64,000 nt of DNA from Escherichia coli O157:H7 (GCF_013167455.1 NZ_CP038328.1), one strand, 5' to 3'. Shown: positions 51,001 through 57,000, counted from the stretch's first letter. A program made the numbers.

Positions 51001-54000
51001 GGTACCGCTGTATCATTTCTCTGGCTTCTTCTGTGCTCACAACCAGCCTCCTGATGTTATCCATGGATTATCTTCCGCACGCTCCGTCCGCAGTTTTTTC
51101 TTCCGGCGACGGCGTTTTTCTGCCCCGGCCGTCAGTTCCGGGGATACCGTTTCACCAGAACGCTCCTGCGGGAAGACGAGCCACGTTTCCCGCTGTGCCC
51201 AGTCCGGTGCGGAGGGCCAGCGGATCTTTTCGTAACCATGCAGAACGGCAAGCGCATCCGCATAAACCAGCAGGTCAAACGCTTCGTTAGCGCCCCTGCC
51301 CGGTTTTCGCCATTTTCCGTCACTGCCGCGCTCTTCATAGGTCAGCTCATCGTAAAACCACCGCCCCAGCCAGTCGGGAAAGTGGATATAGTTCGGCCCT
51401 GGTGTGTCACGCCACAGGGCATTATTTACACGATCCTTAAACGCATCCGTCTGAACCAGCCACAGCGCGACATCGCCACTGGCTCTGGCACGGCGGGCAC
51501 TTCTGCCGGTATTATCCGGGAAGGTTCGGTTAATCAGCCTGTCACGGCGAAGTCCATCCCCCTTGAACAGAAACACCCTGTTGCCCAGTCCGTCACTCCG
51601 GCAACGACGCCAGAAACGATAGGCGTTATCTGTCACCCCGGCTTCCCCTCCCGTATCCACCGCCATGGCCATCAGACGCATGCGCACATCCGGATCAGAA
51701 GCCAGCGGCCATGTTTTATGGAACACATCCGTCAGCAACAAATCCCAGTCCTCCGGATATGCCGCCGGATCAACCGGCAGACTTTCACCGTTGGGACTGC
51801 AGCGCAGTGAATGCCGGATGTTGTAGCGATCAACAATCCAGCGTTCCCCCTGCTCTCCGTATCCGGTGATCTGCACAACAAAACGGCGATTTTTACCGCC
51901 CTGTACGTCAACCGTTGCCTCAATAAAACGCACACCATCCGGCACAGATCGCCGGGGAAACGGCTCGGCACGCTGTTCAAGCAGTTCACTTTTACGCTGT
52001 TCCGTGGCTGAACGGGGCAGATAGGGTCGTCCGATATCGGTGTTCACCACCGCTTTCAGGGTCTCTTCACTGCCGGTTCGCTCATACTCTTCTTCTGCCG
52101 CCAGCAGTTTAAAAATCAGTTGTTCCCAGGTCTGAAACGCCGCAGCTGGCCCCTCCATCCAAAATGACGCAATCCGGGAGTTTCGTGGCGTTCCGGTGAT
52201 ACTGCCGTCCGCCGCCGCCCGTTCACCTTCACGAAGCCAGATCCCCTGGTTATTCAGTTCGCGTTTCTGCTCAGGGGCAATCAGCCCGCGACAATGCGGA
52301 CACATCAGACGGGCAGCCTGACCGGCAGCCACAAAATCCGGGTTATTCCGGTATCCGGTCATGTTATCCATCACCGGCTGAAAATATTCCCCGCAGTGCG
52401 GACACGGCCAGTACCACCGGCGGCGGTCTCCCCGGTTATACAGTGACAGGATCCCCGTTGTTGGCGGTGCCTCATGTGCGCCACCACAACGCCATTTGGT
52501 ATCGGTGATATCCCGCCCCGGTGAACTCTCGACCAGGGTCATCCCCGAGGACATAAAGGTGGTGGTACGCTTTGAGGCCAGCGTGAAGGCATCCCCTTCC
52601 CCGTCCACATTTTCAGGGAAACGGTCATAATCCGTCAGCGCCACACGACGGTAATCCGAAGAGGAAAAGACGGTGATCGACGGCCAGCCAATCTTCAGGA
52701 AGGAGCCGTCAAGAAACATTTTATCGTGGACGTTGTTGTCATTACGGGAAGGACTGAGGCGCTTGCTGACCTCCGGACTGTGGCGAAACGTCCTGGAAAG
52801 ACGCGTTCTGGAATGCTCACGCGCCTTCGTCTCAGTCATCTGCACCACCAGCATATCCGCCGGATCACAGATGATGCCGTACACAATCCAGCCATCAATC
52901 AGCCCTTCGGTTTTCCCGGTTCGCGCAGGTCCCACAAACACCACCGCGTCATATTCACGGGCTGATAATGTATTAATGGGGTCAATCATATAGGGCGTCA
53001 GCGATGACTCCCACGGACCGGAAGTATTGGCTCCCCGTGGAACCCGCATATAACGCCTGATGGCTTCCGCTACTGGTAACCGGCTGGGTGGGCGAAACAG
53101 CGAGGCCACTTCGCGCCAGATATCGGATGCGCGGCTATGGCTCTCGTTCACCTGATTCACATATCGGCCTCATCACAACAGTCAATGACTGCCTTTTCCA
53201 GTGTGTCGCGGATCTCATCAACCACAATCTGTACTTCATTCAGTTGTGATGCAGTCCACCCCCTGTCCCTCTCCAGCCGGTCAGGCCAGGTTTCCAGTAC
53301 CTGAACTATCGCTTTCACCACGACAGAAAAGGACCGCCTGACATCACTGACTGGCACAAGCTGAACAGTTTCATGCTGAAATTTAAGACGCTCGCGCTCG
53401 GACTGATACCATGCCTTACGAGCGTGAGGATCCATATCCTCATCTTCGGAAGATGGTGGTTTTTCCAGCAACGAAGTTATCAAATCCGTCAGGAGATACA
53501 GTTTTTTCTTTTCATTACTGCCTGGTGCAAGAGGAACATCCGCCATTCTGGCGGCAACAGTCTGCCGGTGCAGACCTGAAAGGGCTGCCAGTTGATTAAT
53601 ATTTAACTTCATATTTTTCAGCTCGCCGTCCATTTACATCCCTCCACATAAACCGCAGAACAGAAGTGACTCTGTTTTTTTGTAAAGAAATGCCGCCATA
53701 TAAAGATGTCGAACAAAAAACAACCACAATCATCATCTTTTTAATACTAACAGCATTAAAAACAACAAGTTACCATCATGATGATGATGACGATAAAATC
53801 ACAAAAATGCGCCTTTTTCCGCGCCCGCCCGCCCCGTGTTCAGGCCCACCCCACCAGGAGGACCCGCAAAATGATAATGGTTATCATTTGCAACAAAATC
53901 CAGTTTCTTCCACCATCGCACCGGACTGGCGACTATGAGGGGACAACACCGCGCTCCGTTAACGCGGTAAACCCCGGTGTGTATCGTTTTTGATTATCCC

Positions 54001-57000
54001 CGCACACTCTCGCAGAGGAGTCTCCCTGTCTGGCTGCGGTCTCTGTTAATGCAGGAATACGGTGACGATACGGCGCATCAGCAAAACTTAGTTCAGGCAC
54101 TGAGTGCGGATATAGTCCTGTGCCCCTTCCAGCTGCTTCTGCATTGTCATCAACCGTTCTCTGAGGATGAAATAATCCCGTTCAGCGGTGTCTGCCAGTC
54201 GGGGGCCGGTTGCATTATCCACGCCGGAGGTGCCGGTGGCTTCACGCACGGTACCGGAGCAGGTGGCGTTGATCCGCAGGCGCTTACGACCAGCGGCAAC
54301 ATCAGCACGCAGAGTTTCATTTTCAGCTCTCGCATCGGCTAACTCCCTCGAGTATTTTGCATCGAGCGCAGCAACATCACGCTGGCGCACCTGCATGTCA
54401 GTAATGGTGGCATTCGCCTGTTCCAGCTCTCTGGCTTTTTTATCGCGCTGCGCTTTGTAGGTGAGCGCGTTGTCACGGTAATGGTTTGTTGCCAGCCACA
54501 GCGCACCATAGCCAACCGCCAGGACAATAATCACCACACACAGAACACGGTTCATCTCTCTTTCACCCCACCAGTCCCGATAACGTCAGGACTCGCCAGG
54601 CGGTGGAAAAGAAAATGGCAACCAGCATGACTAAAAATGAAATGCCGACAAGTACACAGAGGCTCTTCACCAGCGTTATGAGTTTATCTGATATCATTAG
54701 CCACCCCATCAATCCGCCTTTGTTATTTTCCCTTTGCCTGTATCAGCCAGGACAAAATCAATCAGCATATTCGCTTCATTTACCAGCGTACGGATTTTTG
54801 ATACATGCGCGGCTTTAACCTGTTTCCACTCATTCAGCCCGGTAGCAAACACACTGGCAATGTTTTTATCCCGTTTCATGTCAGCACAAGCCTGGTTGAG
54901 TTCTTCCATCACGCTCATTTTACGGGGATTAACGACAAAACCCTTCGTCCAGTACTCGTAAAGAACATCGTCGCACTCTTCCTGATACCGGATGACCTTA
55001 TCGCGGATTTCGGGTTTTACTTTGTTGGGATTAATGGTTTGTAGCCAGCCGGCAAGTTTTCGAAGTGGCATGGACACCATATTGCGTTGTTTCCCATCCT
55101 CAGCAACCATAACGATTTCCGTTATAGTTGACGCAAAACGCTGTCTTAACTTAGCCAACTGTGATTGCCAGGCCAGCCCCATCCCCGCAACGACAGGTTT
55201 CATGGGAACGTATGGTTCGCCATTATGGTTAACTACATAAAGAGAGTTGCCGTGAAACGGCACGGCCATCATATTCATCGGTTATTTCCTTTTAGTGATG
55301 AACCTTGTCTCACAGGAATCCAGCCCACAGAAAGGCACCGACAGCCAAACCGGTATCCTCAAGGGTCATCCTGAAAGGTTCTGTGTTGTGAGATGCGCGT
55401 GAGATGCGCAGAAATGACAAAGGCATCATTACGGTGCCTGAGTGTTAAACAACTGTTTTGACTTTATTCACTTACATTTTGCCAATTTGCAGGATTTCGT
55501 GTTATCCGTCCATGTAAGCAAACCTCATTTTTCAGCAAAATATTCTTCTTATCTGTCGATTCCCCAGCACGCCAGCGCGCTCTCCTGGTCACGACGGGAT
55601 ACCTGACCGTAACAGTTGTTTGAACGAATACGGCAGTCTCTGCCACCGTCCTTAATCCACCAGCGAATAGCTTCGCAGGCACCTTTTCGATCACCTGCAT
55701 TAATTCGTCTGTAAAACGTCGACGGGAAACACTTACCGGGACCAATGTTGTACGGACAGAATGACGCGATCCCCGCTTTCTGGGGTTCGGTCAGCGGCAC
55801 TTTGATGTTTTTCTCCACCCATGCCAGCGCCTTATCACGCTCAATGGCGTTAACCCGGTCGCATTTTTCCTTCGACAGCTTCATGCCAGGAATAACAGGC
55901 TTACCATCCACCCGGGTGGCTCCACGGCAGATGGTCCAGATACCCGCACCATCACGGTATGCTGTGGTGTGGTTACCTTCCTTTTCATCCAGAAACTGGT
56001 CGAGGATTTCAGGCGCAGAAGCACCTGCGGCAATCAGCGCCAGAACGGCAGCCGATAAACCATAGCGGAGTTTCCTGCTCATCAGCTTACTCTCCCCGTG
56101 CCGCCTTACGCCGGTCTTCTTTAATCTTGAAATACAGGTTCGTCAGATATGTCAGCAGCCCAAACAGCAGACTCCCCAGCACGCCTATTGCCGCCCACTG
56201 AGACGGGGAAACCCTGTCCAGCAACTGCAGGAACCAGTAGCCCGTTCCCACCGCTGACGTGGTGTATGACACACCTGTTGTGATTTTTTCCATCTGGTAC
56301 ATACCCCGTCTCCCGCAATCCGGAAGCTCACAACAATAAAAAAGACCACCGGCACACACCGATGGTCCCTGACGCATGCTTACATCATCATGTCGCTGTC
56401 CGGTGTGGGGTCACCGCTATCTGAAGCACTCCCCTCACCCGCGATGCCTTCCGGCTCCGGAGCTGCCGGTGCGCCCAGCAGCTCATCCAGAATGGCATCA
56501 ACCTCTGCATCAAGACGCGCTTCCAGGTTATGGCGAAGTTTCTGTTTCAGTGCGCTCCGGACTTCTTCAGAGCGCAGGACTTCCTTCACTGCTTCAGCAG
56601 TGACCAGGGATGTAATTTCTGACATGGGATTTTCTCGTCGAAAGGTGTGATTAAGAAAGTTGCCGCTAAATGAGCGGCTCTTCGGGTTTGCTTCCGGCTG
56701 ACTGACTGGCGCTGATTTTCTCAGCGGCCCTTTTGTCAATCTGTCTGCGCCAGAAGTCACGCATGGCCCGGTATCCACCCGAAAGGAGATACAGCACACA
56801 GACCACCGTACAGAAGTACAGCATTAACTGGTTCAGAAATGTCATAATTTCTTTCCGTTATTGTTGACAATAAGAACTGTTTTCATTTAAAAAACCAGAG
56901 CACGAAAGTATCGTTCCTTTATTTTTTCTCCATAGGTATTACCACCGCCAGCGTCCATTCCTGTCGCTGGCGGTTTTTTTATCATGCCGCAGTGTCTGTG

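Follow-up and report, generated by a model that had tools for sequence, protein, structure and literature searches.

The prophage lying in the analysed DNA of Escherichia coli O157:H7 (GCF_013167455.1, NZ_CP038328.1; a stretch of 64,000 nucleotides, hereafter the window) raises the question of where its genome is cut for packaging and what cohesive ends that cut would leave. The original prediction had proposed a candidate cos site in the gap upstream of the small terminase gene (terS). Analysis of this gap, which is bounded upstream by the Rz gene, indicates that it very probably holds the cos site of the Shiga toxin 1 (Stx1) prophage VT1-Sakai/Sp15, with the cosQ-cosN-cosB organisation of lambda. 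Positions 53400-54300 are 100% identical to prophage VT1-Sakai (AP000400.1; named Sp15 in PMC2669165), in whose GenBank record this intergenic stretch lacks any annotated feature. The site is an unannotated, ordinary example of a lambda-type cos, as expected in a lambdoid prophage, and its recognition would show where the DNA of a medically important Stx1 prophage is cut for packaging. The elements proposed for cutting and for termination of packaging are the following.

53859..53865, minus strand: cosQ (GGGTCCT), packaging-termination signal, identical to lambda cosQ
53819..53839, minus strand: cosN, ACACG^GGGCGGGCGGG^CGCGG, with predicted nicks at 53835/53834 (top strand) and opposite 53824/53823 (bottom strand)
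53824..53834, minus strand: predicted 5' cohesive end of 11 nt, 5'-GGGCGGGCGGG-3', deduced from the CG^ and ^CG flanks and from phage Cr-LKS3
53834..53823, minus strand: alternative cohesive end of 12 nt, GGGCGGGCGGGC

The minus-strand sequence that corresponds to the original prediction, ACGGGGCGGGCGGGCGCGG, lies at 53837..53819, 201 nt upstream of the terS start codon, and is the only match in the window even when three mismatches are allowed (0.01 expected from shuffles). A composite pattern joining lambda cosQ to the left half of cosN, GGGTCCT-N20-26-CGGGGCGG, likewise matched the window once, at 53865..53829, and matched none of 100 shuffles. The predicted left end, 53834, lies downstream of the lysis genes and roughly 200 bp ahead of terS. 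Assuming that the nick at 53835/53834 is homologous to that of lambda, the terS ATG (53633) would be base 202 of the mature genome, against base 191 for lambda nu1. The span first assigned to the site, 53634-54087, does contain it and is too generous, since it covers the whole Rz-terS gap; the cos elements proper occupy approximately 53702-53865, or some 165 bp of 454.

The cos region was aligned with those of lambda and 12 other phages (13 compared), the alignment being anchored on lambda and on phages with a small terminase (TerS) related to that of the window (the spacing comparison drew on the window and on loci L006, L009, L011-L017, L002-L004, L112-L114 and L120-L121). The GGGTCCT heptamer, located 24 bp before the predicted top-strand nick (23 bp in lambda), was also found upstream of cosN in lambda, mEp213, mEp460, LLS, cdtI, yong2 and CP-1639, and as GGGTCCC in Cr-LKS3. 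High conservation of the 7-bp cosQ has been described (Feiss 2015, PMC4669245), and the same sequence is labelled cosQ in Asadulghani 2009 (Fig S8, PMC2669165). In the left half-site of cosN, the CG flank and the first six overhang bases (GGGCGG) are the same as in lambda. The combination of CACG with GGGCGG is common to 10 of the 13 phages, lambda having TACG and Gifsy-2, yong2 and Cr-LKS3 differing; CACG^GGGCGG is present, among others, in mEp213/LLS, mEp460, PhiR40_1, cdtI, Fels-1 and CP-1639. On the other side, the right flank CGCGG(A/G) is kept in all 13. Selection has been reported to act on cosQ, on the CG dinucleotides flanking both nicks and on overhang bases 1-6, with bases 7-12 varying freely (PMC4669245), and this is the pattern observed in the window, where cosQ, the flanks and bases 1-6 are kept and the later bases differ (GCGGG(C) against CGACCT in lambda).

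The ends of related sequence records agree with this placement, as does the alignment with related cos sites by which the candidate was to be checked. The first base of the cdtI and LLS records is the homologous G at the predicted nick, and LLS has an annotated 5' cohesive site; the linear yong2 record starts exactly at the homologous right flank, CGCGGG; and the mEp460_4F5 record (LR595868.1) opens with CCACG|GGGC..., its first base lying 5 nt ahead of the predicted nick. Bases 1-25 of the latter read GGGCGGGAGCGCGG, against GGGCGGGAGCGGCGCGG in mEp460 (JQ182728.1), a 3-nt difference inside cosN that may be an end-of-molecule assembly error. Measured ends are available for the Cylindrospermopsis phage Cr-LKS3, which has a 9-nt 5' overhang, GGGCTCGCG (PMC9303873), at the homologous site: in its record this sequence is directly followed by CGCGGAAGTCGGCAGTTTTT, homologous to CGCGGAAAAAGGCGCATTTTT in the window.

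The genes around the gap follow one another as Rz, the 454-bp gap and open reading frames (ORFs) of 158, 707 and 500 amino acids (aa), the first three of these genes being:

54088..54555, minus strand: Rz spanin gene (Pfam Phage_lysis), which closes the series of lysis genes and bounds the intergenic gap on its upstream side
53157..53633, minus strand: terS, encoding the 158-aa small terminase subunit (Pfam DUF1441; related phage records call it "terminase small subunit")
51037..53160, minus strand: terL, encoding the 707-aa large terminase subunit, which has a gpA ATPase and a gpA endonuclease domain

The large subunit (TerL) belongs to the gpA family (Pfam GpA_ATPase, E 1.8e-81; GpA_nuclease, E 6.2e-84) and aligns with lambda gpA by BLASTP over nearly its full length (24% identity, E 1e-18). 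The 500-aa protein encoded after terL is a lambda-family portal according to Pfam. TerS is of a different kind from that of lambda. Its sole Pfam match is DUF1441 (E 3.8e-48), and no BLASTP alignment with lambda Nu1 was obtained at E <= 100; on these two grounds TerS is not, by sequence, a member of the Nu1 family (Phage_Nu1), and the naming of the small terminase as Nu1 in the original prediction has to be given up. No meaningful match to TerS was found among PDB sequences. Its AlphaFold2 model (predicted local distance difference test, pLDDT, 72.6) presents a strand-helix-helix-hairpin-helix arrangement in residues 9-56, and the best local Foldseek matches of the model are winged helix-turn-helix proteins of the MerR type (RacA, MtaN, BmrR and Xis), which, at E > 0.1 throughout, is suggestive but not significant for a predicted winged helix-turn-helix at the N-terminus. 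A DUF1441 TerS in place of a Nu1-family one is shared with the group made up of Fels-1, Gifsy-2, mEp213, mEp460 and cdtI; the records of Gifsy-2 and Fels-1, whose TerS proteins are DUF1441 relatives, cite the VT1-Sakai protein BAB19581.

Downstream of cosN, the region in the position of lambda cosB presents a set of repeated elements matching TCRWCATC.

53795..53818, minus strand: AAAAAGGCGCATTTTTGTGATTTT, a conserved spacer block that separates cosN from the first R-like element and takes the position of lambda I2
53777..53792, minus strand: candidate R3 (putative TerS site), CGTCATCATCATCATG, with a TCRWCATC motif; bases 43-58 of the predicted left end
53760..53772, plus strand: weak integration host factor (IHF)-like site AAACAACAAGTTA, with one mismatch to WATCAANNNNTTR, in the A/T-rich R3-R2 spacer; candidate I1
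53727..53737, plus strand: candidate R2, CAATCATCATC, a TCRWCATC match inverted relative to R3 and R1
53702..53714, minus strand: candidate R1, GTTCGACATCTTT, with the motif TCGACATC at 53705-53712, in the same orientation as R3

The window contains 19 matches to TCRWCATC, of which 5 fall within the 89-bp stretch 53705-53793. The three candidate elements are arranged as direct, inverted and direct within 53702-53792, in what appears to be the order and orientation of lambda R3-R2-R1, and the candidate R3 lies near the position of N15 R3 (bp 48-59; PMC4669245). The R3 and R2 arms, ATCATCATC and GATGATGAT, form a 9-bp inverted repeat with 100% complementarity, 42 nt apart, and the place equivalent to candidate R1 is taken by TTCGACACTG in Gifsy-2 and by TTCATCACTG in ASU11. 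The spacer block is near-invariant in 68 unique IMG/VR relatives, part of it being fixed by the search pattern, and has homologous counterparts in mEp460/cdtI (GGAAAAAGGCTAGTTTTT) and in Cr-LKS3 (GGAAGTCGGCAGTTTTT). Among 96 IMG/VR relatives, the TerS type of the window always occurs with CGTCATCATCATCAT and a second TerS type always with GGCACCATCACCACC. This strict association fits a pairing between TerS and cosB, and simple linkage could also explain it. A further conserved block, GTTGTTTTTTGTTC (53711-53724, minus strand), lies between candidate R2 and R1; it is nearly invariant in the 68 relatives and is also present in mEp460, ASU11 and Gifsy-2 (GTTTTTTGTTC), with short inverted repeats flanking it in several phages.

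Taken together with the gpA-family TerL and the lambda-family portal, the presence of cosQ, CG^GGGCGG, CGCGGAA and R-like repeats upholds, at the level of sequence, the proposal of a cos site upstream of the small terminase. By analogy with lambda, TerS would bind the CATCATC-type R elements of cosB after induction, probably spanning a bent A/T-rich spacer, and would there anchor TerL, which would introduce staggered nicks in cosN, one in the top strand, at CACG^GGGCGG, and one in the bottom strand, opposite ^CGCGG. The resulting 5' overhang would begin with GGGCGG, as in lambda, and then diverge. Packaging would proceed rightward through terS and terL, and cosQ, located 41-42 bp upstream of the bottom-strand nick site, would end it at the next cos.

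Comparison with individual systems places the site among lambda-like cos regions. As in the window, lambda cos follows Rz and precedes terS by about 200 bp, with an identical 7-bp cosQ, a CG^ flank, GGGCGG as bases 1-6, a CGCGG right flank and 42 bp from cosQ to ^CGCGG; lambda cosB has three R elements, the middle one inverted, as proposed for the candidate elements of the window, and TerL is of the gpA family in both. Lambda differs in the overhang from base 7 onwards, in a flank spacing of 12 bp instead of 11, in R elements of the CGTTTCC type where the candidate ones of the window are of the CATCATC type, and in a TerS (Nu1) to which the DUF1441 protein bears no detectable similarity. The putative cores of mEp213/LLS (GGGCGGCGCGCT), mEp460 (GGGCGGGAGCGG) and cdtI/PhiR40_1 (GGGCGGGAGCGT) are accompanied by DUF1441 TerS proteins with 50-57% identity to that of the window (38% in cdtI), by cosQ, CACG^GGGCGG and ^CGCGG(A/G)AA..GGC..TTTTT, and, cdtI excepted, by a first R element of the CATCATC type; they differ in having 12 bp between the flanks and 22 bp from cosQ to the left nick, against 11 and 24 bp in the window. 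Cr-LKS3 shares with the window a DUF1441-like TerS (32% identity), an overhang starting with GGGC, the CGCGGAA right flank followed by GGC...TTTTT, the cosQ-like GGGTCCC and the 42 bp from cosQ to the right nick, whereas its overhang is 9 nt long instead of 11-12, its host is a cyanobacterium and its downstream cosB sequence is unrelated. Gifsy-2 departs further, with 14 bp from CACG to CGCGGG and a variant cosQ, GGTACTC. Gifsy-1, of a group of lambda-like Salmonella phages and compared by its literature description, is lambda-like with a complex cosB (Feiss 2015, PMC4669245). Lastly, the co-resident lambdoid prophages Sp4 and Sp14 of the O157 Sakai strain have cosQ and cosN arranged as in Sp15, with a lambda-type cosN and a Nu1-family TerS; putative cos sequences have been shown for these two only, and not for Sp15 (PMC2669165, Fig S8). 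Literature searches on the cosN of Shiga toxin phages and on the cos of VT1-Sakai returned nothing relevant, and those for the precise sequences of the cohesive ends, apart from the LLS paper, led to work on G-quadruplexes or on unrelated subjects.

Within this otherwise lambda-like arrangement, from which the locus departs in its 11-bp flank spacing and in its DUF1441 TerS, the length of the cohesive end requires separate consideration. The distance from CG^ to ^CGCGG is 11 bp in the window (GGGCGGGCGGG), 10 bp in the most frequent close relatives and in Stx2_95, KH16-043, Stx2_14040 and CP-1639, and 12 bp in lambda, LLS/mEp213, mEp460, cdtI, PhiR40_1 and Fels-1. Across the 13 phages it varies from 9 to 14 bp, whereas ^CGCGG lies 40-42 bp from where cosQ begins in every one of them, the value being 42 bp in lambda, the window and Cr-LKS3. 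In the lineage of the window, the spacer between cosQ and the left nick is 2 bp longer, offset by a core that is 1-2 bp shorter. With a spacing of 11 bp, one of two conserved features must be given up, the 12-bp stagger or the CG on the right. Because the 9-nt overhang of Cr-LKS3 stops at the homologous flank and the distance from cosQ to ^CGCGG is constant, an 11-nt end is favoured, and the 5' end is most likely the 11-mer GGGCGGGCGGG rather than the 12-mer GGGCGGGCGGGC. The suggestion that the cohesive end may differ from that of lambda is supported, both for its later bases and, as the spacing suggests, for its length.

The same cos could also be cut with the fixed 12-bp stagger of lambda, to which we attach an appreciable though minor probability; the end would then be 5'-GGGCGGGCGGGC, with the bottom nick one base inside CGCGG. 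[quoted passage not shown] With the commonest close variant, GGGCGGGCGGCGCGG, CG would still stand on both sides of a 12-nt stagger. In the window, such a stagger would instead put GC at the right flank where the conserved CG is expected; CGCGG itself, 11 bp from the left nick, would fit an 11-nt overhang. The constant distance from cosQ to ^CGCGG, against a varying CG^ to ^CGCGG distance, and the shorter overhang of Cr-LKS3 with the same ^CGCGGAA flank also speak against a fixed stagger. A single rule giving a 12-nt overhang in all relatives was tried with either flank as anchor, and did not fit.

Cores of 10 and 11 bp are both frequent in IMG/VR, whereas those of 12 bp are rare. Several sequence versions exist for each length, and the 10- and 11-bp cores each occur with both of the identified TerS/R3 types. 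The variation is therefore real and not the product of a single lesion. One tentative interpretation, which we consider somewhat doubtful, is that E. coli lambdoid prophages sharing a single terminase/cosB specificity naturally vary in cohesive-end length (10, 11 and rarely 12 nt), with the bottom nick fixed from cosQ/cosB and the top nick following CG^GGGCGG. If so, gpA-type terminases would impose no rigid 12-bp stagger, and co-resident O157 prophages with the same TerS would make ends unable to anneal together. Should the spacing reflect real overhang lengths, it would bear on how these terminases place their two nicks. The 10/11/12-bp spacing polymorphism may have been covered already by Vahanian et al. 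2017 (Virology 509:140). The predicted sticky end can serve virion-end mapping and the design of packaging assays, and helps to assess the potential of co-resident O157 prophages for cross-packaging or for recombination at cos.

A second IMG/VR scan used the right flank alone as a pattern to seek contigs ending at the nick. It returned one locus, L116 (IMGVR_UViG_2534682078_000008), starting exactly at GCGGAAAAAGG. This start, GCGGAAAAAGGCGCATTTTT, is one base inside the CGCGG flank, the sequence before it lying outside the locus, and would correspond to the bottom nick for a 12-nt overhang on the core of the window. Its reading as a physical DNA end was rejected, as the source is a draft isolate genome in which the break is more likely an assembly effect caused by repeats.

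Several points weigh against a functional lambda-type cos at this position. Support for the cos comes from homology only, and the LLS/mEp213 cos used in the comparison is itself deduced, with a shared annotation (PMC12315714). The distance between flanks is 11 bp where the canonical one is 12, the TerS fold matches are non-significant (all E > 0.1), and the IHF-like site, with its one mismatch, is a weak match to the consensus. Finally, several defects in morphogenesis are reported for Sp15, whose marker moved only via Sp5/Sp15 recombinants (PMC2669165), so that the activity of this Sp15 copy is presumptive.

These defects, and the failure of Sp15 to transfer on its own, are also what would be expected if the site were the decayed, non-functional relic of a defective prophage, in which the 1-bp shortening inactivates nicking. 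An IMG/VR relative with a clearly truncated core (GGGCGGG) and the ASU11 record, which lacks cosN, can be cited in the same sense. We nonetheless judge this reading unlikely. Sp15 DNA is DNase-resistant, and hence packaged in particles, after mitomycin C induction, and the prophage encodes an intact terminase (Asadulghani 2009, PMC2669165), in agreement with the intact terS and terL ORFs of the window. Moreover, the many sequence versions of the 10- and 11-bp cores, found with both TerS/R3 types, do not point to one lesion.

That the G-rich run is instead a regulatory or structural element of the late transcript (a terminator, promoter, small RNA or G-quadruplex) seems very improbable. Its (GGGC)3 repeat does resemble a G-quadruplex, the subject of all the literature matches for the string, yet the G-runs are replaced in relatives (GGGCGGGAGCGT, GGGCGGCGCGCT) that retain the architecture of cos, and this counts against such a role. 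Scans of the region found no terminator-like site and promoter-like sites at chance level only; no Rfam family scored above threshold (the best, PrrF, reached 22.8 bits against a gathering score of 90), and the single-strand fold was no more stable than those of shuffles (z = +0.62). Headful (pac) packaging without defined cohesive ends, for which no favourable point was found, can be practically dismissed given a TerL with gpA ATPase and nuclease domains, a lambda-family portal and a cosQ and cosN conserved with lambda, where a pac phage would have a non-gpA TerL and no nicking site.

Of 5426 complete E. coli genomes, 687 carry this cos region, with at least 99% identity over 94 bp in 266 records. 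The segment 53859-54300 forms a mosaic junction: dozens of Stx1a, Stx2a and Stx2c phages match the Rz side to about 53859 or 53888 and then diverge, presumably because they carry other packaging modules, and just 9 records of the phage collection continue through cos and terS.

In the mitomycin-induced phage ASU11 (ON416862.2), the locus matches the window at 99% identity as far as 53842 (about 600-640 in the locus) and then lacks some 44 bp relative to CP-1639, including all of cosN and the conserved spacer (...GGTGGGCCT|TTATGGCACCATCACC). The missing stretch may reflect a genuine deletion of cosN or else an error of assembly at the physical DNA ends.

Just upstream of cosQ, a perfect 9+9 palindrome, AAATGATAACCATTATCATTT (53869-53889, minus strand), is kept in the right end of lambda (GATGATAATCATTATCAC), mEp213 and CP-1639 and is absent from mEp460, PhiR40_1 and LLS; it is evidently not required for cos. 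By eye, it agrees at about 16 of 19 positions with the Fur-box consensus GATAATGATAATCATTATC. A 40-aa ORF (53799-53921, minus strand) lies across cosQ and cosN. Some RefSeq E. coli genomes, like the records of mEp460, mEp213 and PhiR40_1, have "hypothetical protein" features over the cos region; these annotations are probably spurious.

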